From NCBI GenBank assembly GCA_023379025.1, contig JAMCTH010000003.1, forward strand, positions 17,114-81,113: a stretch of DNA of 64,000 bases, in the 5' to 3' direction. The notes beneath the pieces are model-generated. The model saw nothing but the letters and a program-made list of their open reading frames with translations, searched no databases and was not told where the DNA came from. Positions 3,844 through 60,316 of this stretch are shown here, piece after piece. Every line of letters starts with the position of its first letter. The stretch's first letter is position 1. Source of the DNA: Patescibacteria group bacterium (GTDB taxonomy: Bacteria; Patescibacteriota; Microgenomatia; UBA10105; UBA927). A program made the translations under genes and the position numbers.

Positions 3844-4892
3844 GTGCGTGTATCTTCGAGAGCCTTCCGGTAACTTTCCGAAGTCTCCCGGGCCATGCGC
3901 TTCAGGGAATACCCGGCAAGCCATGCGCTGGCTTTTTTCTGCCATTCCTTCCGGTCTGTCCGAAGCGTCCGGAGTACTGCCCCGGCAAATTCCTCCGGAT
4001 CCGCCGGATCGGCGGTCAGTGACGGTCCTGCAATCTCAGCAAGGGATGACCTGCCGGAAACGACTGCCGGACAGCCGCACGCCATGGCTTCGAGTACCGG
4101 CAGTCCGAAGCCCTCTGCAAAGGAAGGCTGCATATAGCAGGCCGCCATGCTGTACACGGCCGGCAGGTCCGTATCAGGGATAAAACCGGTCCGCACAATA
4201 AACGGGGCAAGACGCAGGGTCTCTGCCTTCGAAAGGACGGCACGCGTCTCCGGAAGATTCTCGTCCGTGACGGCCTTACCGGCCAGCACCAGACGGAGCT
4301 CGGGAATTTTCGCATGCAGAATGGAAAATATGTCGATAAGTCCCGGGAGGTTTTTGTTCCAGTTTACGTCCCCGACATAAAGAAGATATTGACGGGGAAG
4401 ACTGTAGCTTGTCCTGATCCGCTTTACTGTCCTTTCATTTGCCACGGGTTTCATGTCCGGCCCCGGCGCGAGGGGAACGACGTCCACCCGTCCGGGAGAG
4501 ATCCCCGTAAAACGGACGATGTCTTTTTTGGATGCGAGAGAATCAGTGACTACCCGCCGGGCAAATACCAACGATAACTGCTGGATTTTCCACATAAGAC
4601 TTCCCCGCTTCCCTTTCGGAAAGTGGTCCGGAAAGGCAATGGGAATAAGGTCGTGGACCGTAACGACGGTCGGGGTTCGCTTCAGAAGCGGCAGTGTATG
4701 AAAAAAAGTGTCGAAGTATGGATAATGCGCTATATCAGCATTTCCGGGTAATTTTTCTCCCCGGGTAAATAAGGTGTACGAATTTGACCGTTCGTATTTT
4801 TCCAGTGCTCCAATAAGCATTTTTGTATAGACGCCGGTGCCGCGCAACCGGTGAGCGCCCGTCATCGGGCTAGTTTCTATCGCGATATGCAT
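3840..4892 (-). CDS. GT4-family glycosyltransferase
   Basis: 350 aa. The segment AEGFGLPVLEAMACGCPAVVS is the GT4 E-X7-E region. A Met10 start at 4865 is an alternative that would avoid the 23-nt overlap with the upstream gene. Confidence 0.8.
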   Translation of the reverse strand: MHIAIETSPMTGAHRLRGTGVYTKMLIGALEKYERSNSYTLFTRGEKLPGNADIAHYPYFDTFFHTLPLLKRTPTVVTVHDLIPIAFPDHFPKGKRGSLMWKIQQLSLVFARRVVTDSLASKKDIVRFTGISPGRVDVVPLAPGPDMKPVANERTVKRIRTSYSLPRQYLLYVGDVNWNKNLPGLIDIFSILHAKIPELRLVLAGKAVTDENLPETRAVLSKAETLRLAPFIVRTGFIPDTDLPAVYSMAACYMQPSFAEGFGLPVLEAMACGCPAVVSGRSSLAEIAGPSLTADPADPEEFAGAVLRTLRTDRKEWQKKASAWLAGYSLKRMARETSESYRKALEDTRT

Positions 4893-6453
4893 ATTTTTTG
4901 AGTATAAATGATCCCAATACCCAGAACAAGCTCAAAAGGCTTGTAATGTCGGCAATTTCCCTAAGCGTCGTTTCCCGGAAAATGACGGAGACCGTGCTCT
5001 GGCCCTTCGGAACCTGAAACGCTAGCCCGCCCGACCGGTAATCGATCGGTACGCTCCGGCCGTCCACCCGCACCTCCCAGCCGGGATAATAGGCAATGCG
5101 CGATCGTACGGTCTCCTTCACGGGGACGGAAACGCGGAGTGCGTATGCAAGCGGCTTGGAAACTACAGGCGTTACAGTACCGGACTCCACGGTAAAACGT
5201 CCGGCAGGACGGGTTCCCGGCGGAACCAACCATCGCGTGGAGAAGACATCCCCGGGAGTAGTCGTTCCGTATAGAAATTGAGGCTTACTCAGGTAATAGG
5301 CATCGGATCGCGCATCGTACGTTACCGGTCTGGTATACCCGTAGGCAAAAAGAACTGCAGCGAGCCCAAGAGCCGGCGGCATCCATTTCCCGGGGAGTGT
5401 GGATGATATATAGCCGGCGAGAAACGCTGTCGCGACGAGTATGTAGGAAAGGAAACGCCAGGGAAACTGCACATAGGACAACATGGGTACGGAATTCCAG
5501 ACCGGCAGGGAAACAGAAAGCATCAGGAACACCCCGCCAAGGGCCACGGCGGAAAAAAAACCGGAAAGGATACGTGCATCCCGGCGTTTCTCCCGAACCG
5601 TCAGAAGTATCCCCCAGAGCATGACAACAAGCGGTATGATGCCGATTTGCGTACTCATTTCGCCGGAAAGATACCCTGCATTGGCAACCCCCGTGCCCCA
5701 GGACGGGATGACTACTTCGGCGAGCATCGGGAAGTAATCCCGGAAATTGACGGTATTGATGCCGGTCATATACTGCCGCTCAAGAAGCGCCGGAACCCAG
5801 AAATATGACGAGAGTCCGAGACCCGCGGCAAACGGCACTCCAAACGTCCGCTTCCGGATAAGGATATACGCGAGGATAACCGGAACGAAAAGCATCGCCA
5901 TGATATTGTGGGAAAGGATGAGCCCCGCGACGCATACCGTAAAAAACGTCTTCCGGTCCGATTCGACCGCGGAGAATGCCGCCATGAGAAACCCCATGGC
6001 AACCACCTCCCCGACGGATCCGCGGACATAGATGTCCACAAACCAATACGGCACAAATGCAAAGACGATTGTACCCAACAGTGCCGCACCTCCCCGGAAC
6101 AACGAAGAGAGCCAGCGGTAACAGAAGACAGCCGCCGCCCAGTACCCCGCGGCCAATGTAAGCTTAAACGAGTCGGCCAGGGAAAATCCGAACGCATGGA
6201 ACAGGGCGCCGAGATAATCCGGCAGGGGATACTGGAAATTAAAAAGCGGCAGTCCGTATCCGCCCGCCAAATCAGGCGCCCACCGGGGAAACAGATATCC
6301 CGCGCGGAGCATGGCAAACATCTCGTATATCCGGATGAAGTGATACTCGCCGTCATGAGTGGGGATAAACCGCGGGCCCAAAAGCGGAAGGCTGGCAACG
6401 AGGAGAATACCGCCGAGAAGTATCCCCTTCCACCATTTCCCAAGCATGTTCAT
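4870..6453 (-). CDS. Family-A large polytopic membrane protein (HDG-motif, GT-C-like candidate; PTPS-related-like?)
   Basis: 527 aa with many TM helices. Right after TM1 it has THDGEYHF...PRWAPDLAGGYGLPLFNFQYPLP, and a C-terminal beta-rich soluble domain. It is one of five paralogs in this window. Confidence 0.55.
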   Translation of the reverse strand: MNMLGKWWKGILLGGILLVASLPLLGPRFIPTHDGEYHFIRIYEMFAMLRAGYLFPRWAPDLAGGYGLPLFNFQYPLPDYLGALFHAFGFSLADSFKLTLAAGYWAAAVFCYRWLSSLFRGGAALLGTIVFAFVPYWFVDIYVRGSVGEVVAMGFLMAAFSAVESDRKTFFTVCVAGLILSHNIMAMLFVPVILAYILIRKRTFGVPFAAGLGLSSYFWVPALLERQYMTGINTVNFRDYFPMLAEVVIPSWGTGVANAGYLSGEMSTQIGIIPLVVMLWGILLTVREKRRDARILSGFFSAVALGGVFLMLSVSLPVWNSVPMLSYVQFPWRFLSYILVATAFLAGYISSTLPGKWMPPALGLAAVLFAYGYTRPVTYDARSDAYYLSKPQFLYGTTTPGDVFSTRWLVPPGTRPAGRFTVESGTVTPVVSKPLAYALRVSVPVKETVRSRIAYYPGWEVRVDGRSVPIDYRSGGLAFQVPKGQSTVSVIFRETTLREIADITSLLSLFWVLGSFILKKYAYRDRN

Positions 6454-7592
6454 GCCAATGCCTTTCTCCGGGTTTCAGGTCTGAATCTGAGATGCACGGC
6501 ATACCAAACCAAATAGAACAGCACCGGTACGGCCGTAAGCAATTCCCTCATAATGGGACCCGGGCCTCCGTAGGAAAAAGTCAGCATGTACGGAATATAG
6601 CGAAGAAGCAGGGAAAACGTCAGGACTATGGAGAACGGATGGATGAAACTTCCTTTCCGTATCGGGATGACGGCCGCAAACACCAGAAACCATACCGCAT
6701 ACCAGGGATACATCTCTTCCCGGATCGGAGACAGAAGGAATATGACAAACATAAGGATATATGCCCACCGGAAAAGCACTTCCCTCGTGGGATTACGGAG
6801 AAACCACAGGGGAAGAAGTACCACGGTCGCACCTTTAACAAAAACGGAAAGTACAAACGAACCTATCCCCGCGTACCGGGTGCTTCTCTTTCCCGAAGCG
6901 ATGGTCGACACCGCAAAAAGAGAAAAAACCATCATGACGATATCATTGTGTCCGGAAAGAAGCACCTCTATGAGAACCAGCGGGTTCATGCCGAAAAAAA
7001 GCACTGCTTTCGGATCTTTGGTGATCCGGTATATCAACCGTAACGCGCCAAGGTACCAGATAAAGGAAAGGCTTTTGAACAGAATCAGTTCTGCCCACAC
7101 CGTCCCCCGGCCCAGGAACCAGGGGATCGCCGTGAGGAAAACCCATGTCGGGCCATAGAGCGTCACCTTATTCGCGGCTCTCGTAAATGCCAGCATGGGC
7201 TCATTCGGGATCGCAACCGGCATGACAATCCAGGGATTTTCATGGTAAAAAAAAGCGACCTTTGCGGAGAGAACGTAATTGAAAATGTCATAGGAAAATG
7301 CCGGGTATGCGATGACGTATATGATTCCGACAAGAAACAACAAACGAAACCGCGGATGTTTTCCAACGGAGGTGTCTGTCTTCCGAAACGAAAAATAATA
7401 AACGAGAAACAGCACACAAATACATACGGCATAGACAGCTGTCGCAGCCGGACGGTGACGGAAAACCAGCTCCATGAGCGGCCCGTGGAGTGCGGCATAG
7501 AGAGGGTTACCGGACAAATGAAGATTGGGATCCACGAACCCGTAGGTAAAGACTGCCAGTATGACTGATATAACCACAAAAAGCACGTTCAT
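6450..7592 (-). CDS. Family-B polytopic membrane protein (about 380 aa; possible small GT-C or Wzy/ligase-like)
   Basis: 380 aa and entirely hydrophobic. It has an AFSYDIFNY loop motif and a GHNDIVMM segment. A paralog lies at 45100..46257. It overlaps both neighbours by ATGA. Confidence 0.45.
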   Translation of the reverse strand: MNVLFVVISVILAVFTYGFVDPNLHLSGNPLYAALHGPLMELVFRHRPAATAVYAVCICVLFLVYYFSFRKTDTSVGKHPRFRLLFLVGIIYVIAYPAFSYDIFNYVLSAKVAFFYHENPWIVMPVAIPNEPMLAFTRAANKVTLYGPTWVFLTAIPWFLGRGTVWAELILFKSLSFIWYLGALRLIYRITKDPKAVLFFGMNPLVLIEVLLSGHNDIVMMVFSLFAVSTIASGKRSTRYAGIGSFVLSVFVKGATVVLLPLWFLRNPTREVLFRWAYILMFVIFLLSPIREEMYPWYAVWFLVFAAVIPIRKGSFIHPFSIVLTFSLLLRYIPYMLTFSYGGPGPIMRELLTAVPVLFYLVWYAVHLRFRPETRRKALA

Positions 7593-8137
7593 GACTTTTT
7601 GACTTGCGAGCGTATCCGCATTCTCAGAACTATCGACTGTTCCAAAAGCTTACCAAGCGGGAGTACCGAAACCTTTCCGTTTTCAGGAGCCCATTCGAAT
7701 TCAGGAGGCACACCGGTTAAAAGATTCCGGAGCACTTCCTCATGGACGGACGCTTCTTCTGCTATGCTCGTTCTGAACACGCCCATATCCTTGCCCCCGG
7801 ACCGCCCCCTGGAAACCAGCCCGGGGAGGTAAGAAATCTCCGAATCTGAGCGCTTGAGCGCATCCGTTGCCAGAAGATATTGCTTATACTCAAACAGTGT
7901 TTTTGCTTCTACCAGATATTTGTCCGAGAGATTCATACGGTATTCTATGGACGCGATGGTTCCCCAGTACCAGTATCGTTTGAGACCGTCGAGTATTCTG
8001 CTGACGCGGTACAGCCTGTTCCCGGGCATGTATGACGGATACGGAAGAACATAGTCCGATGCATATACCCTGGATACGAAAAAACAGGAGAACAGAAATA
8101 CAAACGTAGAGATAACGATAAGAGCCAGGCTTCTCAC
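7589..8137 (-). CDS. Small signal-anchored or secreted protein of unknown function
   Basis: 182 aa. It has an N-terminal hydrophobic helix followed by a hydrophilic domain. I recognised no motif. It is embedded in the operon by 4-nt overlaps. Confidence 0.5.
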   Translation of the reverse strand: MRSLALIVISTFVFLFSCFFVSRVYASDYVLPYPSYMPGNRLYRVSRILDGLKRYWYWGTIASIEYRMNLSDKYLVEAKTLFEYKQYLLATDALKRSDSEISYLPGLVSRGRSGGKDMGVFRTSIAEEASVHEEVLRNLLTGVPPEFEWAPENGKVSVLPLGKLLEQSIVLRMRIRSQVKKS

Positions 8138-8149
8138 AATAAATTCCCT

Positions 8150-8926
8150 TTATCTTCGGAACTTTTTAACATACAAGCGGTATGCAAGCGGGAAATGCAT
8201 GGCGGAAAAAAGCGCAAACAAAAATCCGTACCAACCGTCGACAAACCCTTTATGCCGGAAAAAAAGAAGAAAAAAGGTTGCCGACGGCTTTACGAGATAA
8301 TACGAAAGGGCCGTAGTGACCGAAGGGACGAGATGACGGGCGTGCAGTTCGGAAGCCTCAAGAGCTACGTACGTGCGGGCCTTTTTCCGGTATTCCCCGA
8401 TCGAATCGTACGTATAATGATGTAACGCGTGAGTGAGATGCCCGACATCCCCGTCGACCGCGATCTGCTCGTGCACGCTTTTGGCCGGAAAATGTGCTTT
8501 GCCGTTGCGGACGAGCCGTATGACGTAATCCGGATACTGGCCGCCTTTTCTGAGCCAGTGGCCCAGGAAATAATTTTTCCTCGGGAGAAAAAAACCGTTT
8601 TGCTCCGGATGAGCTTTAATCGTCGCCTCAATTTCGTTCATTAATTCTCCTGACACTTCCTCATCGGCATCAAGCTGAAGGATCCATCTCCCCCGGCAGC
8701 GATCGAGCGCTTTTTGTTTGTTTATATGGAAGATCGGAGGATTACCGGTATGGACGACGGTTGCGCCGAACGACGCCGCGATATCGCAGGTTTTATCTCC
8801 CGATCCACCGTCAACGACGATGATTTCCCCGGCCGTATCCTGCACTGAGGCAAGACACCGGGCGAGATTTCGTTCTTCGTTATACGTCGCAAGGGCGACG
8901 GAAAGCATTATGTCTTTTTTCGCCAT
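8150..8926 (-). CDS. GT2-family glycosyltransferase (LPS-core/WaaE-like type)
   Basis: 258 aa with LSVALATYNEE and DGGSGDKT GT-A motifs. A Met7 start at 8908 is possible. Confidence 0.7.
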   Translation of the reverse strand: MAKKDIMLSVALATYNEERNLARCLASVQDTAGEIIVVDGGSGDKTCDIAASFGATVVHTGNPPIFHINKQKALDRCRGRWILQLDADEEVSGELMNEIEATIKAHPEQNGFFLPRKNYFLGHWLRKGGQYPDYVIRLVRNGKAHFPAKSVHEQIAVDGDVGHLTHALHHYTYDSIGEYRKKARTYVALEASELHARHLVPSVTTALSYYLVKPSATFFLLFFRHKGFVDGWYGFLFALFSAMHFPLAYRLYVKKFRR

Positions 8927-10590
8927 AGGACGATATATCCTCCTCCCGCCACCACAACGGCGATACCTGCAAGCGTCAGTATATCGCTTACCCTTCTCAG
9001 TTTCGTATCTCCGAACGCGACGACAACCTCATGACGCCCTCGTTCCACCCAATACGTCATGAGTCCGCGATACCGGGGATCCTGAAATTCTACCGGAACC
9101 ACTTTCCCGTCGACCGTAACCGTCCATCCCGGAAAATAGAGCGTATTTTCTACAATCCGGGTACGGGTTCCCGCATTGACCGTATAGATATGAAGTGTCG
9201 TTCGGCGGGCGACCGGCTTAATAGCAGCATTTCCCTCAATGACGAGAGCGGGTCCTTTCGGCGCCTTCTCCATAAACCGGACGGACCATATGGGGCTGCT
9301 TTCGCCGGTATCCGTCGTACCCGGATAGATCCCGGTATAAAAGGATTCCGGCTTGTTGATGTATCCGCGCGGCTGCCACATGCCGTACGTCGTAAAAATG
9401 ACGAGAAAAATAGTTGCCGCAAATACATACCTTCCGGGTTTCGGAGGCAATTGGGATCCGGCAACAGACGCAATCGAAGCGCAGATGATGACGGGAACGG
9501 CAAGAAATCTCCAGGGGAACTGGAACTTCTGAAGAATACGGACATGGTCCCATACCGGGAGTGACCACTCCGTCATAAGAAAAAGCGTACATGCCAAAAG
9601 GACCAAAAGGGCTATCAGGATAGTACGTATATGCTTCTTTTTCGATCTCCACAACACGATGCCGGATCCTCCGACAGCTATCCATGCCGGGACACCCAAC
9701 TGTTTTGTAAGCTCATTGCCTCCTCCCCAACTCCAGGGCGAATAGAAAAAAGACAAAAACGGCACAAACCGCGTACTGAATTCCCTGCCGGTTACGATAT
9801 CACGGAGCGTATATTTTCCTTCAAAAAAAGCGGGAACCCAGAAAAAAGCGGACAGAACAAATCCCAGCGCCACGGCTATTCCCGCTGTTACCAAAAACCG
9901 TCCGGGACTTTTGGTACGGAACCCGGCCTCATACACCGCATACAACCCAAGAAGCGGCAGCATCATGAGGCTTATGGCGTTATGGGCCAGAATGAGACCC
10001 GCTGTCGCCGCCGCGATGAGGAGGCCGTAGAACATACGGTCCCTCTCCGAGTATGACTTCCGTTTCCCCGATCCCTCGGTATCAAACGCCCTGCCCATAC
10101 GGAATAATCCCCAAAGGATAATCGGCGGGAATACGAACGCCAGGTGTTCACCGATATCCCCGCGTACGTACATATCCACGAAGCGGTACGGCGCAAATCC
10201 GTAAAGAAGACTTCCGATGCCAGCTCCAAGGTTACCCCATTCTTCCCTCGCCCAGAGGAAAAAGAAAAGAAGCGAGGCGATATAGGAAAGTCCGGTGACA
10301 ATTTTCAGGCTGTCTGCGAGCCCCGGCCCCAGCGCGTGCAGGCCGGAAACGAAATATGACGGAAGCGGATAAAGAAACATGAGAATGGGATGTCCGTATC
10401 CCCAGTTTAGGTTTTCCGCCCATCTCGGGACGATATTTCCTTCGCGAAGCGAGAGGTAGAAATTAGCGATACGCGCGACATGATCCTGTCCGTCGTGTGT
10501 CGCGGGCAAACCTGCATGGAAAAGCGCTCCGAGAGGGAGAAGTGATAGTGCGAGGACTATAAGGATCGTTATCGCGGTGTTTTTCTTCAT
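8908..10590 (-). CDS. Family-A large polytopic membrane protein (HDG-motif)
   Basis: 560 aa with ATHDGQDHV...PRWAENLNWGYGHPILMFLYPLP. It is a paralog of 4870..6453. Confidence 0.55.
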   Translation of the reverse strand: MKKNTAITILIVLALSLLPLGALFHAGLPATHDGQDHVARIANFYLSLREGNIVPRWAENLNWGYGHPILMFLYPLPSYFVSGLHALGPGLADSLKIVTGLSYIASLLFFFLWAREEWGNLGAGIGSLLYGFAPYRFVDMYVRGDIGEHLAFVFPPIILWGLFRMGRAFDTEGSGKRKSYSERDRMFYGLLIAAATAGLILAHNAISLMMLPLLGLYAVYEAGFRTKSPGRFLVTAGIAVALGFVLSAFFWVPAFFEGKYTLRDIVTGREFSTRFVPFLSFFYSPWSWGGGNELTKQLGVPAWIAVGGSGIVLWRSKKKHIRTILIALLVLLACTLFLMTEWSLPVWDHVRILQKFQFPWRFLAVPVIICASIASVAGSQLPPKPGRYVFAATIFLVIFTTYGMWQPRGYINKPESFYTGIYPGTTDTGESSPIWSVRFMEKAPKGPALVIEGNAAIKPVARRTTLHIYTVNAGTRTRIVENTLYFPGWTVTVDGKVVPVEFQDPRYRGLMTYWVERGRHEVVVAFGDTKLRRVSDILTLAGIAVVVAGGGYIVLWRKKT

Positions 10591-13738: not shown

Positions 13739-13778
13739 AACGGAAAGTTCTCCGGGCTTCCTTTCTCTGTTTTTCATG

Positions 13779-25680: not shown

Positions 25681-25866
25681 TTAGTCAAAAATTACTTTAT
25701 TTGAGGAGTAATTTTTTCTGTAGTTTTCGACAATCTCCATCTGCATCTTGTTAGATTCATGCAAGGCACGTTTAATTATCCGCTTTTTTTCTTTTGCGGG
25801 GTAATCAAAGTATGAACGACCCGTTGATACTTTGCCGGTAAGCTTCCTGATAATATTCCTGATCAT
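25681..25866 (-). CDS. Small basic hypothetical protein (61 aa) coupled to the zeta-like gene
   Basis: It lies in the AT-rich island, and its ATG overlaps the zeta-like 3' ORF stop as ATGA. I recognised no motif. Confidence 0.3.
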   Translation of the reverse strand: MIRNIIRKLTGKVSTGRSYFDYPAKEKKRIIKRALHESNKMQMEIVENYRKNYSSNKVIFD

Positions 25867-34897: not shown

Positions 34898-34947
34898 TCG
34901 AGGCGCATATATTCACGATCTTGGGACAGGAGGCGTTTGAGAGAAGG

Positions 34948-36602: not shown

Positions 36603-36605
36603 ATG

Positions 36606-37223: not shown

Positions 37224-37235
37224 ACCTCAATGACG

Positions 37236-39628: not shown

Positions 39629-40365
39629 ACCCCTCCGGTCCTCCTGCGCCAGGGGCGCGTGGTAAAAAGGCGCCAGAGGCCTTCAAGGTCTCCCTGCGCG
39701 GTTTTCATGACACGGACGGTGGAACCGGGGTTATCCACCCACGTCACGGGCTCTTCGTAAATCCGGTATCCTTCTTTCTCTCCCAGAATGAGAAGCTCCG
39801 AATCAAAAAACCATTCATTGTCGGCAATCTGCGGCAGAAGTGTTTTCACGACGTTTTGCGTCACCGCCTTGAACCCGCACTGCGCGTCGGAAAAATTGAC
39901 CCAAAAAAAGAATCTGATGAGGGTGATATACGTCTTGGATGTAATAGTACGGAGGGTATTTCTGCCGTACACCCGCGCTCCATGGGCATTCCTCGTCCCT
40001 ATGGCGATATCGTATCCCCGGAGGAGCGACCGGACGAGAGTCGGAAAATGCCGTAAATCCGTCGAGAGGTCGACGTCCATATAAGAAACGACGTCATCCT
40101 TGGAATGCTGCCAGACGTATTTGACCGCCCTTCCCCTTCCTTTCTGATGAAGGTGTACGGCCCGAACATGCGCAATAGATTTCGCAAGCGACAGCGCGAT
40201 CTCGTATGTCCGGTCGGTTGAAGCATTGTCGGCAATGGTGATGGTCCAGGTAAAATCCGGCAGATGAGTACCAAGATACGCTGCAAGCGTGCGGACATGA
40301 TCGGCAACCTCCGCTTCCTCATTGTAGACCGGTATGACAACGTTAAGAGATGGTTTTTTTGCCAT
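39616..40365 (-). CDS. GT2 polyprenyl-phosphate sugar synthase (DPM1/GtrB-like)
   Basis: 249 aa with LNVVIPVYNEE and DNASTDRT motifs, and a QCGFKA segment typical of Dpm1/GtrB-type enzymes. Confidence 0.75.
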   Translation of the reverse strand: MAKKPSLNVVIPVYNEEAEVADHVRTLAAYLGTHLPDFTWTITIADNASTDRTYEIALSLAKSIAHVRAVHLHQKGRGRAVKYVWQHSKDDVVSYMDVDLSTDLRHFPTLVRSLLRGYDIAIGTRNAHGARVYGRNTLRTITSKTYITLIRFFFWVNFSDAQCGFKAVTQNVVKTLLPQIADNEWFFDSELLILGEKEGYRIYEEPVTWVDNPGSTVRVMKTAQGDLEGLWRLFTTRPWRRRTGGVWKK

Positions 40366-42040
40366 ATATGAATACTATCATGACGACCGTCAAAACCGAC
40401 AACAGATTTCCGATCGTCCTGACCGGGGTATCGGTAAACTGCATGGATACGATACTGGTCCCCTGCGGTACGGATATCCGGGGAAGGGCATGTACGACCG
40501 CGGGGGTCACTGACGTTCCGTTCACCTCATAGCGCCAGCCCGGGAAATATGTCCGGTTGATGACGACGCCGGCAGGGGTCTCTGCCTGTACCGCGATACG
40601 GGCACGCGTACCCGTATCTTCAAGTACCCGTGCTGTCACGCCGGCGGCGGAAACCAAGGAAGACGGCAGATCGTTCACGCTTTTGGGTTTGATGAAACCC
40701 GGCGGGAGATATTCGTCGGAAATTTTGGACACACGGAACCGGAGTTCCCCGGCCGATGTATAGGTGCTCAGAGGTTCTGTGTAGGGGTACTGAGGGATAA
40801 ATAATCTGACGGAAAATACCAGCACCCCGGCAATGATAGCACCCCCCAACGCAATCCGTACACCGTGTCCGGGAATCCACCGGAGCACGGCAGCCGACAG
40901 AACCGACAGCCCGAGACTTGCCGGTGAAAGAAAGCGCCAGGGATACTGCATATAGGCAAAAAAGGGAATAAGCTTCCAGAGGAGTACGGACCAGGAAAGC
41001 ACCAGAAAAAGGGAAAGTGCGGTCCAGATCAGAATGACGCGGAGAAAGGTCCGGACTTTTTCCGTGAGCTCCGGCCGGACCGGACACAGCGCAAGGGCGG
41101 CAGCCGACAGTACTATGTACTCTTTTCCGAGTTTAAACGAAAATCCGTCCATGCATCCTTTCTCAGATCCTCCGAATCCCCAGGGTGAACTCCACAGTTG
41201 TCCGAGGCACACAAAATGATCCAGATAATCCGCGCTTTTGCCGATTTGTCCGGCTACCGATGTCGCGCTCATCTCGGCAAACGCCGGAAGCCAGAAAAAC
41301 GCCGAAAGACCGAGTCCGCCGGAAAAAAGCGCAGCAATTCTTTTAACCTCTTCGGTAATGGATCGTTCCCGAAGGAGCCGAAAAAAGAGATACCCGGCGC
41401 ACCCTGCCATGGTAAGTACAACTGATGCGTATCCAAAAAGGGTATGGGAGAGAATGGTACCGGCAAGTCCGGTGATACCGAGGACAGCCTCCTTACGGCC
41501 TCCGGAACCGAAAATCCAGAATATCCCGAAAAGAAAAAGCGGAAAAAATGCCGCTGCCCAGAATTCTCCGACCGCACCGCGTACATAGATCTGGACGGCG
41601 TGATACGGAGCGTACACATACATGACTCCGGCAACAACGCCGGCGACCGTCCCGAGATACCGGGAAACCAGCCAGAACATAGTCAGCCCGGAGAGGAGGA
41701 TGCCGGCGGCAAACATAAATTTCGTTGCGGTAAGTGCATCGGTCATGCCGGTCGCGTAGAGAGCTCCGCCCACGTAATACGGAAGCGGTGCATAGAAGTT
41801 AAACAGCGGGTACCCATACCCATATCCCAAATCCGCAACCCACCGGACCGGAAACTGTCCGTTTTGAAGCGCCCTGCCCATAGCTACGACGCGCCCTACC
41901 TGCGTATCATCATGCATGGGGAAAAAGCCCCTGAGGGTAAGGGGGCGGATGCTCCAGACCGAGAGGATAAAAACCGCAGCAACACCGGTAAGCCCGATAT
42001 ATGCGGGCCGGAACATGTGATGCAGGCGTTTTTTCACCAT
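40343..42040 (-). CDS. Family-A large polytopic membrane protein (HDG-motif)
   Basis: 565 aa with PMHDDTQVGRV...VRWVADLGYGYGYPLFNFYAPLPYY. Confidence 0.55.
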   Translation of the reverse strand: MVKKRLHHMFRPAYIGLTGVAAVFILSVWSIRPLTLRGFFPMHDDTQVGRVVAMGRALQNGQFPVRWVADLGYGYGYPLFNFYAPLPYYVGGALYATGMTDALTATKFMFAAGILLSGLTMFWLVSRYLGTVAGVVAGVMYVYAPYHAVQIYVRGAVGEFWAAAFFPLFLFGIFWIFGSGGRKEAVLGITGLAGTILSHTLFGYASVVLTMAGCAGYLFFRLLRERSITEEVKRIAALFSGGLGLSAFFWLPAFAEMSATSVAGQIGKSADYLDHFVCLGQLWSSPWGFGGSEKGCMDGFSFKLGKEYIVLSAAALALCPVRPELTEKVRTFLRVILIWTALSLFLVLSWSVLLWKLIPFFAYMQYPWRFLSPASLGLSVLSAAVLRWIPGHGVRIALGGAIIAGVLVFSVRLFIPQYPYTEPLSTYTSAGELRFRVSKISDEYLPPGFIKPKSVNDLPSSLVSAAGVTARVLEDTGTRARIAVQAETPAGVVINRTYFPGWRYEVNGTSVTPAVVHALPRISVPQGTSIVSMQFTDTPVRTIGNLLSVLTVVMIVFIYGKKTIS

Positions 42041-43575
42041 GCCCTCCTCCAGAATACGCTCCCGGCAGCCACGATACCGAGCACGATAAAGCTCACGAGT
42101 GAGATCACGTCCGCGGTAAACCGGAATATGGTTTCGCGGAATTCAACAAAAATATGGTGTGTCCCTTCAGGAACGGAAAACCGCATGAGCCCTTCCGGGT
42201 TATCATAGCGGAGTTCAACGGGGACATCATCGAGGGTCGCACCCCAGCCGGGATAATAGAGTGAATTGATCTGTATGACACTGTTTTCGTCTGCATGGAT
42301 CACCGCATCAATGCGCTCGGTCGTTCCCGTACGAAGAACAATCGACCCCTGACCGGTATAGAATTCAATCCTCCGGTATGCGCGTGTCGCCGGTCTTGCC
42401 GATGCCCAGACAGGCATGTATTCGTCGGCAACGGTGGTCGTCGCTTCGTTGGTGGTATAGTATCCGATCGTACGGTCTACCGGGACAACCCTGCTCATGA
42501 TCGTCCATACGGGTCCTGCCCACAGCAGTACATAACACGCCGTCAGAGCGATACGTGCCGGAGTCGGACGCCCGGAAAGACTTGCCGCGACAATCCATGC
42601 GCCGGCAAAAAGTCCCACGGCGAGAAACCGGTACGGAAACTGGACGTACCGCGTCAGCACTGCGCTGTGCCAAAGGGGGGCCCCCAACGGCGTTGCTATA
42701 AATACAACTGCCACAAAGAGCGAGACGTACCATACCGTCAGCATGCGTTCCTTTACCCTATGCCCGGTAAGAAGGAGAATGCAGGCAAGGATTGCTCCGA
42801 AATTCAGAAGGTATAATGACGTTCCGTCTACGATAAACTGTTCCGGTTTTGAAAGGATTATGCTTCCGAACATCACATATCCCCGTTCAAACAATGCGGG
42901 CATCCAGAAAAAGGCGGAGAGACCGATCCCGGCGGCAACCGGCAGAAAATAACGGAACTGCCGTTTCAGGACGATCCACACTACGATAAGAGGAAAAAGA
43001 AGAAGCGCCAGGGTATTATGGCTGACGATGAGAAACCCAACCGCAAGAGCAAGGAGCAATTGATTGCCGGAGGAAAGGGCATAGAGAGCTGCGCTTGCGG
43101 GAAGGAGGGCCAGGATCTCTCCGACGGATCCGCGTTTATAGAGGTCAAATCCTAGATACGGCGCGAGAAGAAACCCGAGGCTGCCGGCAAATGCGGAGGT
43201 CTCATCCCAGCTTTTCCTGAGCCAGAGATAGATATACCATACCGAACCGATGACAGAGCCGCCGAGGATAAGTTTCACCGCATCGACGAAGGAAAATCCC
43301 AGTATATGGATGAGCGACCCAAGATACAAAAACCCGGGATAGAGAAAATTTGCCACCGGATACCCGTAACTGTTGTTCAGTCTTCCCAGAAAACGCACGG
43401 GAAACTGCCCTTCACGAAGGCTCTGGAAAAATGCCGTGAGCCTGATGATCATCCACTCCCCGTCATCGGATACAAAAAACCCGTGGCGGAGAAGCGGCCA
43501 CAGGATCGCGAACGAGCACAGCGTAAGAAGAGCGAGAGAGAGGATTCCGTTTTTCGTAAACGGAGGCCGTTTCAT
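42034..43575 (-). CDS. Family-A large polytopic membrane protein (divergent: SDDGEW instead of HDG)
   Basis: 513 aa with VSDDGEWMI...VRFLGRLNNSYGYPVANFLYP. It is the tandem paralog of the previous gene. Confidence 0.5.
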   Translation of the reverse strand: MKRPPFTKNGILSLALLTLCSFAILWPLLRHGFFVSDDGEWMIIRLTAFFQSLREGQFPVRFLGRLNNSYGYPVANFLYPGFLYLGSLIHILGFSFVDAVKLILGGSVIGSVWYIYLWLRKSWDETSAFAGSLGFLLAPYLGFDLYKRGSVGEILALLPASAALYALSSGNQLLLALAVGFLIVSHNTLALLLFPLIVVWIVLKRQFRYFLPVAAGIGLSAFFWMPALFERGYVMFGSIILSKPEQFIVDGTSLYLLNFGAILACILLLTGHRVKERMLTVWYVSLFVAVVFIATPLGAPLWHSAVLTRYVQFPYRFLAVGLFAGAWIVAASLSGRPTPARIALTACYVLLWAGPVWTIMSRVVPVDRTIGYYTTNEATTTVADEYMPVWASARPATRAYRRIEFYTGQGSIVLRTGTTERIDAVIHADENSVIQINSLYYPGWGATLDDVPVELRYDNPEGLMRFSVPEGTHHIFVEFRETIFRFTADVISLVSFIVLGIVAAGSVFWRRAW

Positions 43576-45128
43576 AGAGCGCCTTTCGTGCCGGACTGCG
43601 GCACCACTTCAAAAAGGCGGAGTGTTCTGTCTTTGTTCAGTCCTTTTTCATAGGACGCAAGCAGTTTGAGAGGCCATTTGGGAGGCACCGTCTCTGTCTG
43701 GTTCAGAATCAAAAACGTCGGGTGAGCCCTGCTGTCACTCCTCATGGCGGCGGGCATATCTTCCGGGATGGGCCAGACCCCATGGATACTCATATTGGGA
43801 TTGTCGACAAGATAGATCTCTATAGCATACGGCAGAAGCCCGAAGGTCCCGTCCGTGTATACGGACACCTTGTGTGCCGACGCTTCTGTCCTGAGGTACG
43901 AAACGACGGGCGCAATGCCCCATCCCGCGGGCCAGTCATTCATATACTGTCCCCGGTCCGCTTCCGGAATCGGTGCGTAGAGGGGATTGGTCACGAGGAG
44001 GTAATCCGTCGTCACCGACGGCACGAGGGCAAGCACCACGATAAAAATTCCTAAATAATGCCGCCGCAACTGGCGGATGAGCCAGGAGGAACTTTCCGCC
44101 GCAATGACAAGAAGCGGCATGCACATAAACAGAATAAAACGCGGGTAGAGCACTTTTCCGAAAAGCGCGAGCGCAGCAAACGGTCCGAGCCACCAGCCGT
44201 AGAGAAGGAGTTTTTTTGCGTCGATGCGTCCGAGCGCTATAGGCAGGAATATAAGCCCGACAACCGGAAGGGTCAGATAACGCCAGAACCAGTCAAACTC
44301 CCCGCGCAGGTTTCCTTCGACAAAACGCATGGGATGCAGGAGCCATTCGCGGAAGGGATAGACGAACACCGCGTCCTTTTCCGCCACCATATGAAAAAAC
44401 GGCGAGAGCCGGAGGGTACTGTAGATCGCCTGGGAAACGAGCGCCGCAACACAAACAAGCATTATCCAGCGCGCAAGGCGACGGAGACGCCCCGGCGTTT
44501 TCCAGTCGAAAAGAACCAGGGTGAAGGGCAGAAGATAGAGGCCGAAAAATCCGGATGTCTTCGTGAGCATCGCCCCGCCGAGACCCATGCCGAGGATGAG
44601 TGCGATATCGAGGCGCCGGTGTTTGACGAGAAGGATACCAAGATAAAGATTCCATATGGCAAACGCGGCAACCATACTGTCATAGAGAGCCATGCGGTCA
44701 TAGACCGTGGCAAACGGAGACAGTACATAGAAGAGTGCTGCAAGAAACGCAGCCGGCGCGGTTCCGAACAGTTCCCAGGTGAGAAGGCTTATGCCGATAA
44801 GACTGCCGACTCCGGCGCCTACCGATACGAGCCTTCCCGCAAGAAGCGGGTCGTGGACCGCGCGCAGGACCCCCATAAGAATCCAGGTATACATGGGCTG
44901 CTTGCCGTCGGTGAGCGAGATAAAACGCCAGTTCGCGTCACGGCTTCCTATCTGGGACCAGCGGATGTAGATTGCCTCATCGGTAAAAATCGGAAGTTTT
45001 GTAAGATTGGTGAGGCGGCTTACTCCGAAAAGCACCGCGATAAAAAGTGCGGCAATAACCAACGTACGCCATGAACGCAGAATCGGATACATATGACGAT
45101 TATACCCCGGTACGGAAACGCCGGGCAA
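43572..45128 (-). CDS. ArnT-like GT-C membrane glycosyltransferase (family C-related)
   Basis: 518 aa. Loop 1 has PIFTDEAIYIRW, a DE motif like ArnT. A Met13 start at 45092 would remove the 29-nt overlap with the upstream gene. Confidence 0.6.
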   Translation of the reverse strand: MPGVSVPGYNRHMYPILRSWRTLVIAALFIAVLFGVSRLTNLTKLPIFTDEAIYIRWSQIGSRDANWRFISLTDGKQPMYTWILMGVLRAVHDPLLAGRLVSVGAGVGSLIGISLLTWELFGTAPAAFLAALFYVLSPFATVYDRMALYDSMVAAFAIWNLYLGILLVKHRRLDIALILGMGLGGAMLTKTSGFFGLYLLPFTLVLFDWKTPGRLRRLARWIMLVCVAALVSQAIYSTLRLSPFFHMVAEKDAVFVYPFREWLLHPMRFVEGNLRGEFDWFWRYLTLPVVGLIFLPIALGRIDAKKLLLYGWWLGPFAALALFGKVLYPRFILFMCMPLLVIAAESSSWLIRQLRRHYLGIFIVVLALVPSVTTDYLLVTNPLYAPIPEADRGQYMNDWPAGWGIAPVVSYLRTEASAHKVSVYTDGTFGLLPYAIEIYLVDNPNMSIHGVWPIPEDMPAAMRSDSRAHPTFLILNQTETVPPKWPLKLLASYEKGLNKDRTLRLFEVVPQSGTKGAL

Positions 45129-46257
45129 ATCGCCGGACCAGCAATACGGAGACGGTGACGAGTACCGGGATGACCGTCAGTAGATCCCGGTACTGCGGCA
45201 CAGGAGCATTATAGTCACCGAAATATAATACCGGAGCATACCGGAGCAATAATCCCAATGCGTAGGCTCCGGCAACCGCGGTGACTGCCTTCTGCCGCGG
45301 GAGAAGGGCAACAAACGGAGCGATCCAGAGAAAATACCAGGGCAGAATCTCCCGCGTCAATCCGACCGCAACAAGGCCTGCCGTCATCAGCAACAATGCC
45401 AGCGTCCTGTTCCACCGGAACAGGAGAGCCGGCGCAAGGGCAAGCGTCATAAGTTTCATGGCTACGGAGAACGCCCAGACAAGAAGGGATTTCCAGAAAC
45501 GCATCCGGATGCCGGCATATACCGCAAACAGCACGATCGCCATCATCACCATGTCGTTATGAGGGCTCACGAGAGTTTCCACAATCACCAGAGGATTGAG
45601 TGCAAACAGGGCAACACCGGCCGCTTCACTCCCCGGCTCCAGGCGCCGCAGTATCCGTCCGATAAGATACGCCCCGATAAGATATGAAAGTGCAATTATC
45701 GCCTTTATGTTCCAGAGTATAAGGAGAAAATACCCGAATCCCAGTATATAAGCAGGGAGCGTCAGGACAATCCAGAGAGGCGTATATGCTGACGGGAGAT
45801 GTGTCCACCGCATAAATGACAGCCAGGGTTCGATACCGGTAAAATCAAGCGGGATGACGGTATAGGGGTTCTGATGATAGACGAGCACCGTCTTGGCCGT
45901 AAACATATAATTGAATATGTCATAGGAAAACGCGGGGTAGGAAAACACGAGTATTCCCGCAAGTAACAGGGAAAGCTTCAGAACGGAACCGGCGCCGATC
46001 GCGTTTTTCCTGGCCCGGACCAATACCCATACATATCCGATAAGGAGGAGTGCCGCAAGCCCCAAAAACAGCGCCGTAGACAACGGACGCTCGTAATACC
46101 CGACATACTGGAATGACGTTTCAAGCGACCGGACCAGTCCGAACCGCGAAAGGGTAAGAGAGAGATCCACCTGCGTATAGGAATAGAGAAACCACCCCAA
46201 TGCAGTCAGCAGATACAATACGCAAAGTGCCCGGATGGAATGGGGTGTTTTTTTCAT
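45100..46257 (-). CDS. Family-B polytopic membrane protein
   Basis: It has an AFSYDIFNY motif and is a paralog of 6450..7592. The start is trimmed from 46395 to Met47 at 46257. Confidence 0.45.
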   Translation of the reverse strand: MKKTPHSIRALCVLYLLTALGWFLYSYTQVDLSLTLSRFGLVRSLETSFQYVGYYERPLSTALFLGLAALLLIGYVWVLVRARKNAIGAGSVLKLSLLLAGILVFSYPAFSYDIFNYMFTAKTVLVYHQNPYTVIPLDFTGIEPWLSFMRWTHLPSAYTPLWIVLTLPAYILGFGYFLLILWNIKAIIALSYLIGAYLIGRILRRLEPGSEAAGVALFALNPLVIVETLVSPHNDMVMMAIVLFAVYAGIRMRFWKSLLVWAFSVAMKLMTLALAPALLFRWNRTLALLLMTAGLVAVGLTREILPWYFLWIAPFVALLPRQKAVTAVAGAYALGLLLRYAPVLYFGDYNAPVPQYRDLLTVIPVLVTVSVLLVRRFARRFRTGV

Positions 46258-46283
46258 GTAGCGAACGTAAACGCTTCTCTCTC

Positions 46284-47039
46284 CTAGGAACGGTACCGTC
46301 CCCGCATGGCATTCAACCGGATTTTGACAATGGCGGCAAGCCCCTGCAGTGAATCGCGGACAGGGCTGACCCGGCGGGTGTCGACGTAATGCCATTCAAC
46401 CGGTACTTCTTTTATGGAATAGCCGAGCAGTTTGGCAACATAAAGCACTTCTATATCAAACCCTGCCGTCACCATGGAACCCTGCGCGGTATCGTGTTTT
46501 TTGTATAAACGGAGCCGCCTGAATATATCCTGCGCGACGTGACGCCGGAACGCCTTAAAGCCGCACTGTGTATCCGTAATACCCCGTAGTCCGAGAATTA
46601 GGGCGCGAAGCACCATAAATCCGCGCGCCATGACCCGGCGGAGAAACGGCGCTCCTTCGCGTTTTGTGCTGCGGGATCCGATGACCACATCGTACCCCTT
46701 CAAAAACCAGGGAAGGAGTGCCCCCACTTCGGATATGGGTGTTGCCTGGTCAAGATCTGAAAAAAGCGCAGTACCGCCCCGTGCGGCAAGCATGCCCGTG
46801 ATGACGGTCGCCGCTTTTCCTCCGTGTGCATTATGGATAACCCGGAATCTGGAATCAGAGGCGGCAAACGCGTCAAGCAGCTGTCCGGTATCATCCGTTG
46901 AACCGTCATCCACCAAAATTACTTCCCAGGAGTAATCTCTCCGGTCAAGATACCGCAATACCCGGTCAAGCGCCCCCAGGCGGATATTGGTTTCTTCGTT
47001 ATATGCCGGAATCACGACGGAAAGATATGGTTCTTTCAT
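46284..47039 (-). CDS. GT2 polyprenyl-phosphate sugar synthase (DPM1/GtrB-like)
   Basis: 251 aa with LSVVIPAYNEE and LVDDGSTDDT motifs, and a TQCGFKAF segment. Confidence 0.75.
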   Translation of the reverse strand: MKEPYLSVVIPAYNEETNIRLGALDRVLRYLDRRDYSWEVILVDDGSTDDTGQLLDAFAASDSRFRVIHNAHGGKAATVITGMLAARGGTALFSDLDQATPISEVGALLPWFLKGYDVVIGSRSTKREGAPFLRRVMARGFMVLRALILGLRGITDTQCGFKAFRRHVAQDIFRRLRLYKKHDTAQGSMVTAGFDIEVLYVAKLLGYSIKEVPVEWHYVDTRRVSPVRDSLQGLAAIVKIRLNAMRGRYRS

Positions 47040-47071
47040 ACGTTTCTGTCACGCTCTGTGTGAACCGCGGT

Positions 47072-48679
47072 TCAGCCCGTACCGGTATAGTGCTCCAGTT
47101 TGAAAATTTTTACAAAGGGCGTAACCCACTCACCGACGATCTGTGCGCGCCCGAATCCGGCAATTTCCCACAGGGAGTTTCCGAGCGGATGACAGTCGGG
47201 AAATTCGCAGATGACGATAAGCTGATCCGTAACGCTTCTCCGGTCCGGATCGACGGATACCGGTTCGATCGTCACGGGCGGATGCCCCCAGATTTCAAAA
47301 AAATACCGGTAGGCGTAATCCGAATTGGATGAGGTGATAAGGGCGAAGTTAAACGGGAGCCCGTTTGCTTTAGAGAGGGCCGTTTGGGCAATACCGCGCA
47401 TCTGAGAAAGCTGATTATTCGGCGCGTACACAAACGGTCTCCCCTGCCAGTTCAGGACCACGAGACCGATAAACACGGCTGCCGCACCCATACGTCCCAC
47501 CACGTTTATACGTGCGATATCGGCAAGAACAAGCGCCGTCAGGAGAAACGGCAAAGGAAATACAATGCCGAAATAATAGTCATAAATATTTTTCCGGTAT
47601 AAACCGAAAAGCACTATGCTGACACCAAACCAGAGCGCCAATAGGAGCATGGCCTGCCGCCCTTCCGGCTCAAGAAGAAACGTCCTGATCTTCTTTATGA
47701 ATCCCCTCTCATTTGCCCGGGAGCGGACGACTGCCCAAACGGACGGCAGTAAAATGAGGGCAAGGGCCAGGATTGTTCCGAGAACCGTACCGCCCCGCCA
47801 GAGTATCTCCTGCCAGGGCGGGAGAGCCGCAAGCGAAGCTGCCTCGGGGATGCGGTAGACAAGCCTTCCGAAGATGCGGTAGCTGACATCCGCAACGGTA
47901 GCAAGGAACCGGCCGAAGGAAAATCCTACATCCTGTCCGGCAAGGATAAACCGGATGATCGACCTTGTATTGGGGAAGCCGTGCCGCAGTTCGAACGCAA
48001 GAAACGGGCTATAGCCCACCCCAAACCCTGCAATCCCGAAAAGGTAGTGGCGGAGCCTCCTCCCCGGCTTACCGAAGAATAAAAGCCAGAGGGCTGCAAA
48101 CGGAATGAGGAAGAGAAAAAGATAATGAAGCTGCAGACCGATCCCGATTATTACGCCGATCCAAAAAAGCATACCGGGCCGCTTTTCCTCGGTTGTTTTC
48201 CAGAGACACCAGACAAGGAGGAGTGAAAAAAACGGCACGAGATTCGGGTTCCACGAAGACCGCGAATAGGATATAACCAGCGGCGAAAGTGCGTAGAGGG
48301 CGGCAGCCATGAGCCCCACCACACGGTCAAAGAGCATGTTCCCGGTCCGGTAAAGAAGCCAGACCGTCGCGATGCCAAAAAGCGCCACCATTACGGCGGG
48401 GCCGGTCGGATCGAAGCGCCAGAGCCAGAGAAACGGCAGCATGAAATAGTAATAGATAGGTCCAAGGAAAAATCCTCCGACGGAAGCCGTGGGTCCGAGG
48501 AGGGTAAACTTGTGCTCGGTGATCATCCGCGCAACCACCAGGACATCCCGCCCCTCATCGCCGAGGAACGTAAGGTACGCCGATATCTTCCATAACCGAA
48601 GATACGCAGCGACCACGACGATGGCGGGGAGCGCAAACGTTTGCCAGTGCCGCCTCATCCACGAAAGCGTTTTATACAT
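47072..48679 (-). CDS. Family-C GT-C fold membrane glycosyltransferase
   Basis: 535 aa with FLGDEGRDVLVVARMI...LLGPTASVGGFFLGPIYYY. Confidence 0.6.
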   Translation of the reverse strand: MYKTLSWMRRHWQTFALPAIVVVAAYLRLWKISAYLTFLGDEGRDVLVVARMITEHKFTLLGPTASVGGFFLGPIYYYFMLPFLWLWRFDPTGPAVMVALFGIATVWLLYRTGNMLFDRVVGLMAAALYALSPLVISYSRSSWNPNLVPFFSLLLVWCLWKTTEEKRPGMLFWIGVIIGIGLQLHYLFLFLIPFAALWLLFFGKPGRRLRHYLFGIAGFGVGYSPFLAFELRHGFPNTRSIIRFILAGQDVGFSFGRFLATVADVSYRIFGRLVYRIPEAASLAALPPWQEILWRGGTVLGTILALALILLPSVWAVVRSRANERGFIKKIRTFLLEPEGRQAMLLLALWFGVSIVLFGLYRKNIYDYYFGIVFPLPFLLTALVLADIARINVVGRMGAAAVFIGLVVLNWQGRPFVYAPNNQLSQMRGIAQTALSKANGLPFNFALITSSNSDYAYRYFFEIWGHPPVTIEPVSVDPDRRSVTDQLIVICEFPDCHPLGNSLWEIAGFGRAQIVGEWVTPFVKIFKLEHYTGTG

Positions 48680-54015: not shown

Positions 54016-54044
54016 ATACCGCACACTGAATGTTTTTGTACCGT

Positions 54045-60309: not shown

Positions 60310-60316
60310 AGCGGCA

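Follow-up and report, generated by a model that had tools for sequence, protein, structure and literature searches.

Twenty GT-C glycosyltransferase genes in one patescibacterial locus point to a possible split-topology glycan assembly line

Bacteria of the candidate phyla radiation (CPR), or Patescibacteria, are ultra-small and mostly episymbiotic. Host attachment must be made via the surface, and the envelope of these bacteria is almost uncharacterised. In this study, we analysed a locus rich in GT-C membrane glycosyltransferases in a 64,000-nt stretch of DNA, referred to as the window, from the metagenome-assembled genome (MAG) of an uncultured Patescibacteria group bacterium of the Microgenomates type (GCA_023379025.1, contig JAMCTH010000003.1, positions 17,114 to 81,113). 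Gene content, GT-C identity, paralog families, packing, conservation with synteny, and the synthase to GT-C gene ratio were computed here. The open reading frame (ORF) listing showed that the window is almost wholly coding. The glycan locus runs from 18 to about 55,250 (about 55 kb) and extends past the left end of the window. Its 43 glycan-metabolism genes cover 97% of 18-55,252 with only one gap longer than 100 nt, and they include 20 GT-C, 10 GT2 and 3 GT4 glycosyltransferase genes, 2 Wzx-like flippase genes, and the sugar-nucleotide genes rmlABCD, ugd and one further enzyme gene of the short-chain dehydrogenase/reductase (SDR) type. An earlier note on this DNA had drawn the limits of the locus at 4870-48679, which is too narrow at both ends. 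Its count of about 20 large polytopic membrane proteins was borne out, since the ORF listing, hydropathy, Pfam and all-versus-all BLASTP gave exactly 20 within that range. The 20 genes make up 32,967 nt, or 75% of it.

We adjusted gene starts by comparison with gene calls that had been made independently on identical contigs of two sequencing runs. The identical sequence was assembled independently from both runs and also occurs on a 236,824-bp contig of an NCBI MAG ("Patescibacteria group bacterium"), whose hypothetical proteins M1555_00405 to M1555_00440 are identical to window proteins. Because independent assemblies carry the same sequence, the locus is not an assembly artefact. Scans of the window for tRNA genes and Rfam families gave no matches.

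The 20 proteins were grouped by all-versus-all BLASTP and alignments into families A to F, which reproduced the groups named in the earlier note. Their genes lie on the minus strand unless stated otherwise. Family A contains three YfhO-like proteins of about 770-790 aa that are 31-33% identical to one another: A1 (21537-23909, plus strand; 84.2 bits to Pfam YfhO, PF09586), A2 (29128-31431; 45.7 bits) and A3 (32480-34852; 76.9 bits). All three exceed the 28.5-bit cutoff and carry LWNP[HY]xF[AS]G, in agreement with the WNPY-F-G motif described before. Family B contains five proteins of the short-YfhO/PTPS_related type (25-35% identical). These are B1 (4870-6447; THDG after the first transmembrane helix, TM1; orthologs in 70 loci), B2 (8908-10590; BLASTP to B1, E 6e-68), B3 (19888-21540, plus strand, in a divergent block; PTPS_related 57.6 bits and a weak match to the GT-C enzyme AftD), B4 (40343-42016; a weak PTPS_related match and BLASTP links to other B paralogs) and B5 (42034-43575; BLASTP to B1, E 4e-59). 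Five proteins had been described as sharing an HDG motif; the five-member family stands, and after TM1 only three of its members have HDG, while one has HD-D and one DDG. Family B was not filed as YfhO proper because its match covers only the C-terminal end of that model (18 bits).

Families C and D are both of the PMT_2 type. The four members of family C (27-37% identical) share DE..[GA]Y[NT]A[YR]S..TG[RK]DE[YH]G and comprise C1 (12083-13756; PMT_2 46 bits; DE...TGRDEYG; start codon chosen by us), C2 (13779-15452; 39.9 bits), C3 (15449-17065; 35.6 bits) and the borderline C4 (23906-25546, plus strand; PMT_2 23.4 bits; BLASTP to C2, E 5e-65). The DE motif is found in all four, and only C4 matches PMT (PF02366), at 22.3 bits against a cutoff of 22.7. 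The five members of family D (24-31% identical) have DQG, DEG, DQA or DEA in loop 1. They are encoded at 10587-12086 (DQG; PMT_2-like by paralogy, with BLASTP to the last member of this list at E 1e-15), 18363-19877 (41.5 bits; first gene of the module 1 operon described below), 26736-28214 (27.6 bits), 43572-45092 (42.2 bits) and 47072-48679 (50.1 bits). Family E consists of two small proteins that are 32% identical and share YPAFSYDIFNY, E1 (6450-7592) and E2 (45100-46257; orthologs in related loci L072-L080). Family F is a single small gene (17062-18318) that matches ALG3 (29.7 bits) and GT87 (29.1 bits), both above cutoff. The four GT39-like proteins with a DE...DEYG motif, the five proteins with a DE/DQ loop-1 motif and the three smaller proteins of the earlier note correspond to families C, D, and E1, E2 and F.

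All 20 membrane proteins are GT-C enzymes. Twelve of them match PMT_2, YfhO, PTPS_related or ALG3/GT87 at or above the Pfam gathering score, and six further proteins are linked to Pfam-matched members by BLASTP at E <= 1e-15. Family E was assigned to PF26314 (MptA_B_family) via the precomputed annotation of identical contigs; it had no match in the Pfam set that we scanned, which lacks that model. The same domain is annotated on 120 of 120 listed homologs. A crude hydropathy scan gave 7-12 hydrophobic segments in each of the 20 proteins, and the AlphaFold2 models of B2 and E1 are multi-helix bundles. In the B2 model, a C-terminal beta-sandwich is followed by a final membrane helix, and this is the portion common to family B and YfhO. 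Across 42 sequences each, D33 of family B, directly after TM1, and D21 and D102 of family E are invariant. The invariant acidic residues of loop 1 are D36-E37 in family C and D41 in family D. An invariant acidic residue just past the first membrane helix, the GT-C catalytic-loop position, is thus present in families B, C, D and E. D70 is invariant in family A. Two of the checks proposed earlier, hidden Markov model (HMM) searches and catalytic-loop residues, came out in favour of GT-C. These enzymes would putatively use polyprenyl-(di)phosphate-linked sugar donors; DPMS/ArnC/GtrB-like GT2 proteins are present in the locus.

We examined relatives in a one-genome-per-species scan, in which E1 homologs were found in 79 loci, and HMMs made from the window families were run on those loci. 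Sensibly named records place E1-bearing loci in Gottesman-, Woese-, Levy- and Roizmanbacteria and other Patescibacteria. Dozens of third-party-annotation MAG records with the cluster (L002, L003, L007 and many more) are titled 'uncultured Gammaproteobacteria bacterium', which is probably a placeholder or mislabel. Nearly every 21-kb neighbourhood in the relatives holds 5-10 GT-C genes, a density as in the window. Two modules were recognised. Module 1 in the window (19877 down to 18, minus strand) reads D F C C C D B gt2 x E B GT4 gt2 wzx gt2 GT4, and in the Gottesman-, Woese-, Levy- and Roizmanbacteria loci it reads (A, divergent) (F) C C (C) D B E B gt2 wzx gt2. Module 2 (49798 down to about 35688) reads GT2-GtrA, D, gt2, E, D, B, B, gt2, Wzx, GT2, a 205-aa protein, GT2, and its order is identical in loci L072-L079 from further Patescibacteria. 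In one MAG (CAYWVJ01), the two modules lie on separate contigs (L029 and L074).

Each module has one Wzx/MOP flippase with GT2 neighbours, two DPMS/ArnC/GtrB-like synthases and cytoplasmic GT4/GT2 enzymes. The GT-C set of each consists of one MptA/B-type, two short-YfhO/PTPS_related and 2-5 PMT_2-type proteins, with or without one ALG3/GT87-like protein. The gt2-wzx-gt2 arrangement occurs in both modules and in relatives (L002-L079). In module 1 both GT2s around Wzx are DPMS-like (1119 and 3157); of the pair in module 2, 39616 is DPMS-like and 37236 GmaR/SunS-like. Orthologs specific to each window paralog are 40-65% identical to it, compared to 25-37% identity between the window paralogs. Because ortholog identity exceeds paralog identity, the duplications predate the spread of these lineages and every copy was kept. 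The extreme paralog expansion described before is thus not a one-off but the juxtaposition of two anciently diverged modules, each separately conserved across Microgenomates/Patescibacteria.

The plus-strand block 19888-25546 was considered as a recent inversion, and this was rejected. Several relatives likewise have a YfhO-like gene pointing away from module 1, which shows that the arrangement is old. At 19875-19890, 10 nt separate the start codons of two divergent genes, the family D gene (18363-19877, minus strand) and B3 (19888-21540, plus strand); therefore, both ribosome-binding sites and both promoters would have to lie inside the coding sequence of the neighbour.

The remaining genes of the locus are all on the minus strand. 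At the distal end of module 1 lies a cytoplasmic GT4 (18-1115; Glycos_transf_1 121 bits; best match in 51 related loci). It is followed by a GT2 that weakly resembles polyprenyl-phosphate sugar synthases (1119-1922; Pfam GT2; NCBIfam PpgS, PgfS and ArnC, far below cutoff) and is kept beside wzx in relatives. The adjoining gene (1903-3147; 414 aa, about 9 hydrophobic segments in the crude scan) has no Pfam match of its own. Its orthologs (30-58% identity) carry PF01943/PF13440 and are named oligosaccharide flippases, which identifies it as a divergent Wzx/MOP flippase and ruled out the Wzy or ligase that we had also considered. The next GT2 (3157-3843; start from an independent gene call) is a DPMS/AglJ-like putative polyprenyl-phosphate hexose synthase, with 124 bits to NCBIfam AglJ against a cutoff of 325; among solved proteins it is nearest to Pyrococcus Dol-P-Man synthase (5mlz, E 5e-20), with ArnC and GtrB next. 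A further GT4 (3840-4892; Pfam) is conserved in 64 loci. The gene marked x above (7589-8137) encodes a 182-aa secreted or anchored protein with an N-terminal hydrophobic segment and a weak DUF5667 match. It lies between a GT2 and the MptA_B-family gene and keeps this position in 63 of the 79 related loci, and it could be an accessory factor of module 1.

That GT2 (8150-8908; Pfam GT2) is closest to GmaR (E 2e-12) and SunS among solved structures. With its two paralogs (34948-35739 and 37236-38183; Pfam, BLASTP) it forms a group of three that is nearer to GmaR/SunS than to DPMS/GtrB. GmaR is a flagellin O-GlcNAc transferase and SunS a peptide S-glycosyltransferase. Two GT2 proteins are of the Glyco_tranf_2_3 or rhamnosyltransferase/MftF type (28211-29131 and 35688-36602; Pfam, NCBIfam), and the third GT4 lies at 31428-32483 (Glycos_transf_1 88 bits). 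In module 2, the Wzx/MOP flippase (38171-39628; Polysacc_synt_3 179 bits, NCBIfam MOP flippase 104 bits) is preceded by a putative polyprenyl-phosphate sugar synthase (39616-40365; below-cutoff NCBIfam matches led by PgfS, Dol-P hexose transferase, AglJ and ArnC). Upstream are a DPMS/ArnC/GtrB-like synthase (46284-47039; closest solved 5mlz, ArnC and GtrB; NCBIfam PgfS and ArnC) and a fusion of a GT2 synthase with a GtrA-type flippase domain (48686-49798; GT2 92 bits, GtrA_DPMS_TM 63 bits), the only GtrA domain in the window. Synthase-like GT2s are thus five of ten (1119, 3157, 39616, 46284 and 48686). Five DPM1/GtrB-like synthases, one GT2-GtrA fusion and two flippases had been placed within 4870-48679. 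The synthases at 39616 and 46284 and the flippase at 38171-39628, the latter with a Pfam match, do lie there; 1119, 3157 and 48686 fall just outside, the flippase at 1903-3147 is left of that range and was seen via orthologs only, and the remaining five GT2s in the range are other subtypes. A 205-aa membrane-anchored protein with a Ser/Pro-rich linker (36606-37223; hydropathy) has a C-terminal domain without a Pfam match. A positional ortholog follows Wzx in module 2 of relatives, with a gene of the same size in L072 and L078, and it is possibly a glycosylation substrate or an accessory protein.

The sugar-nucleotide genes adjoin module 2. They encode an SDR-type NDP-sugar dehydratase/epimerase (49811-50770; GDP_Man_Dehyd 279 bits, NCBIfam all below cutoff), a nucleotide sugar dehydrogenase of the UDP-glucose 6-dehydrogenase type (50820-52118; three Pfam domains, NCBIfam subfamily 437 bits, above cutoff) and the dTDP-L-rhamnose enzymes RmlD, RmlB, RmlC and RmlA (52115-55252; RmlD_sub_bind, GDP_Man_Dehyd/Epimerase, dTDP_sugar_isom and NTP_transferase). 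An Arn-like pentose route made of ugd, 49811, the GT2-GtrA fusion and a PMT_2 enzyme was dropped, since the SDR protein is nearest to GDP-mannose dehydratase/LegB and not a clear UDP-glucuronate decarboxylase.

Several features at and beside the locus were also recorded. The sole large gap (1,189 nt) lies where two operons converge. It holds a low-GC cassette (25681-26578, minus strand) with a Zeta-toxin-like kinase (26066-26578; 101.8 bits) and two small basic ORFs (25863-26129 and 25681-25866). Characterised zeta toxins phosphorylate UDP-GlcNAc, and a link of this kinase to the glycan locus is possible. Directly upstream of rmlA is a gene for a CAP/SCP-domain protein with predicted membrane segments (55508-56464, minus strand), with an 84-aa DUF5656-like ORF between the two (about 55258-55512). 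Between 56000 and 60800 the GC content is lower (44-45%) and several genes are unusual, including an acidic 322-aa orphan protein without a family match (57062-58030, plus strand). The genes for t6A (threonylcarbamoyladenosine) in this region appear to be partly fused or truncated: a 110-aa TsaD-family fragment lies at 56506-56838, Sua5/TsaC at 59189-59815, and a TsaE domain preceded by a 170-aa N-terminal region at 59848-60792.

We next considered what the locus may make. With five synthase-like GT2s and one GtrA domain for 20 GT-C genes, several GT-C enzymes must share donors. The two MOP/Wzx flippases, which occur with GT4/GT2 genes, suggest a lipid-linked oligosaccharide stage. Sequential extracytoplasmic glycan assembly is favoured by the few synthases beside many GT-C enzymes, the GT4/GT2 genes with MOP flippases, the MptA/B-, GT87/ALG3- and Aft-like members, and the fixed, co-inherited order. 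Our preferred reading, about evenly balanced between right and wrong, is that the locus encodes an assembly line of split topology for one or two complex glycans. Cytoplasmic GT4/GT2 enzymes would build a short lipid-linked glycan from nucleotide sugars, with dTDP-rhamnose and UDP-glucuronate supplied by the adjoining genes, and a Wzx-like protein would move it to the outer face. A few GT2 synthases would charge polyprenyl phosphate with single sugars, which would likewise be flipped. The GT-C battery would then extend and branch the glycan outside the membrane, each enzyme with its own linkage or acceptor position. The three large YfhO-like enzymes of the middle part, with their own GT2/GT4 partners, would probably serve further decoration or final transfer. 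We infer the donors, the sequence of steps, that only one or a few products are made, and an acceptor that may be a lipid anchor, the wall or a protein.

Several observations weigh against this assembly line. The 50 window proteins include no detectable WbaP/WecA-type initiating phosphoglycosyltransferase (PGT), Wzy polymerase, O-antigen ligase or Wzz (Pfam Bac_transf, Glycos_transf_4, Wzy_C/O-antigen ligase and Wzz; NCBIfam), nor was any found in about 4 kb left of the window from the same organism or in the 10-kb flanks of two relatives. This agrees with the earlier note. The window and the readable flanks likewise yielded neither a ligase to wall or protein nor an acceptor gene, so the proposed line lacks both its start and its end in the DNA read. 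Genes for the initiating PGT, Wzy and Wzz could lie elsewhere in the genome. Family B resembles in fold the protein-glycosylating Pmt4/AglB/STT3 (STT3B) about as much as the polysaccharide-building AftD/AftA and the lipid A-modifying ArnT, and fold similarity cannot separate protein, lipid and polysaccharide acceptors. Every match of a GT-C, GT2, GT4 or flippase protein to an NCBIfam equivalog is far below cutoff; therefore, no sugar or linkage specificity can be named. The comparison of loci covered conservation on either side of the middle part, 26736-38183.

The earlier note had proposed many GtrA/GtrB/Gtr*-type systems. On this view, independent trios of the Gtr/CsbB-GtcA-YfhO type would each charge polyprenyl phosphate with one sugar, flip it and attach it as a side group to surface polymers or proteins that are produced elsewhere. 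The three types of component are indeed all present, including the DPMS/GtrB-like GT2s. The GT2-GtrA fusion at 48686 directly adjoins the PMT_2-type GT-C gene at 47072, each YfhO-type GT-C gene lies beside a GT2 or GT4 gene, and the failure to find PGT and Wzy in the locus is in keeping with such trios. Comparable systems are known (reviewed in PMC8035078 and PMC11127046). However, the model fits poorly because 20 GT-C genes are set against five synthase-like GT2s and a single GtrA, and only the 48686 and 47072 pair conforms to it. GtrA was found once in the window and in module 1 of none of the relatives examined. The ancient paralogs are kept one to one and in fixed order across the whole class, whereas decoration cassettes are typically variable. 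The two Wzx flippases and several GT4/GT2 genes point instead to an oligosaccharide intermediate. We regard independent trios as doubtful, though a serious minor possibility.

We also weighed a general PMT- or Pgf-like protein O-glycosylation, which we think unlikely. Here, polyprenyl-phosphate donors would serve Ser/Thr-rich regions of many secreted or membrane proteins, with the paralogs split by substrate or elongation step. The DE motif in loop 1 of family C with its one member borderline for Pfam PMT, the weak NCBIfam matches to streptococcal PgfS, PgfM1 and PgfM2, the GT2 at 8150 and its two paralogs nearest to the protein or peptide glycosyltransferases GmaR and SunS, and the membrane-anchored protein with a Ser/Pro-rich linker within module 2 would all suit this model. 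O-glycosylation of disordered regions by GtrB plus a GT-C enzyme is known in streptococci (PMC11092751). However, these likenesses are at superfamily level only and below curated cutoffs. Relatives of families E and F (ALG3, ALG6, PimE and GPI-MT-I) act on lipid-linked glycans and not on proteins. No MIR domain match and no obvious set of target proteins was found among the window proteins, and twenty enzymes far exceed the need of any known protein O-glycosylation system. The more specific suggestion of S-layer or pilin O-glycosylation found no direct support, as no such genes occur in the window. Neither trios nor O-glycosylation is mutually exclusive with an assembly line. A non-functional locus, either an assembly chimera or decaying duplicates, was considered solely for the extreme copy number and has a negligible chance of being right, since identical proteins in identical order occur in independent assemblies, 20 of 20 ORFs are intact with conserved loop-1 acidic residues, and same-order orthologs exist in dozens of genomes.

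Because all of the component types are known, we do not regard the system as one of a new kind. Its novelty lies in scale and organisation, namely 20 GT-C genes of six lineages in one locus and two modules across a CPR class, as well as the absence of GtrA from module 1 and the Wzx flanked by GT2 in both modules. In the literature searched, we found no description of GT-C clusters in CPR; PIM-like genes in a Saccharibacterium (PMC6031116) and multiple copies of Dol-P-Man transferases in Peribacteria (PMC4736985) are mentioned in passing. Complete chromosomes of related Gottesmanbacteria MAGs measure about 1.0-1.1 Mb. A complex, strongly selected surface glycoconjugate is implied, because so reduced a genome keeps 20 GT-C genes in fixed order with about 20 supporting glycan genes. 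Host recognition, phage defence or envelope integrity would be likely roles of such a glycoconjugate. In addition, the locus offers DPMS-like synthases, MptA/B-like and short-YfhO enzymes as targets for heterologous biochemistry, and its bacterial relatives of the ALG3/ALG6 type are material for studying the evolution of lipid-linked glycan assembly.

Since module 1 is without GtrA, the question arises what flips its polyprenyl-phosphate sugars. A bolder extension of the assembly line, which we consider quite improbable, is that Microgenomates and some other Patescibacteria would make a major lineage-specific lipoglycan or glycoprotein coat through a bacterial counterpart of ALG/LAM synthesis, taking up about 5% of a genome of about 1 Mb, with MOP/Wzx-like proteins flipping polyprenyl-phosphate monosaccharides. 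This role was considered because the MOP/Wzx genes are always sandwiched by two GT2 genes and module 1 lacks GtrA. If true, it would be one not previously assigned to the MOP/Wzx family.

The locus was compared with known systems. It is not a standard O-antigen or capsule locus, as the earlier note had concluded. It is GT-C-rich and, as far as its gene content indicates, a surface glycosylation locus dependent on lipid carriers. A Wzx, as in Wzx/Wzy-dependent loci, is present (38171, and 1903 via orthologs), and PGT, Wzy, ligase and Wzz/PCP went undetected. With three-component systems (GtrA/GtrB/Gtr*, CsbB-GtcA-YfhO and ArnC-ArnE/F-ArnT; PMC8035078, PMC5836110, PMC11127046) it shares the logic of GT2 synthase, flippase and GT-C enzyme. 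The pair of 48686 (GT2-GtrA) and 47072 (PMT_2) is a textbook example, and YfhO-family members are present. In contrast, its components stand at 5:1:20 where such systems have 1:1:1, its genes form a conserved, ordered set and not a variable one, and module 1 has no GtrA. The Streptococcus mutans Pgf operon (PgfS, PgfM1, PgfE and PgfM2) combines a GT2, two YfhO-like GT-C enzymes and a sugar epimerase, and window proteins have their best NCBIfam matches to PgfS, PgfM1 and PgfM2, at 15-73 bits against cutoffs of 500-1500. It differs in that copy number in the window is five times higher and no adhesin substrate was found.

The eukaryotic and archaeal lipid-linked oligosaccharide pathway (cytoplasmic ALG enzymes, RFT1, lumenal ALG3/9/12/6/8/10, DPM1/ALG5 and STT3/AglB) shares with the locus the split topology proposed here, a MOP-type flippase candidate, DPMS-like GT2s and several GT-C enzymes in series. 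The likeness lies at the fold level only; for family B it is to AglB and STT3B. The window differs in its bacterial host, in a carrier presumably of the undecaprenyl type, and in that the initiating GlcNAc-1-P transferase was not found. Many GT-C enzymes sharing one or two polyprenyl-phosphate sugar donors made by GT2s is also the pattern of mycobacterial and corynebacterial lipomannan/lipoarabinomannan (LM/LAM) and arabinogalactan synthesis (PimE, MptA, MptB, MptC, EmbA-C, AftA-D, Ppm1 and decaprenyl-P-arabinose), in which GT4 enzymes act first in the cytoplasm and extension then takes place outside the membrane. Sequence identity to solved members is 8-14%. The window has flippases of the Wzx type and enzymes of the YfhO type in addition, genes for a phosphatidylinositol anchor were not identified in it, and its sugars are probably rhamnose/uronic acid based and not mannose/arabinose. 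In mycobacteria, the LM/LAM and arabinogalactan genes are dispersed over a 4.4-Mb genome, whereas here 20 GT-C genes lie in 44 kb of a genome of probably about 1 Mb. The window also has two MptA_B-family proteins and one GT87/ALG3-like protein. By analogy, the best reading of the locus appears to be the logic of mycobacterial LM/LAM/arabinogalactan or eukaryotic ALG synthesis and not that of an O-antigen locus.

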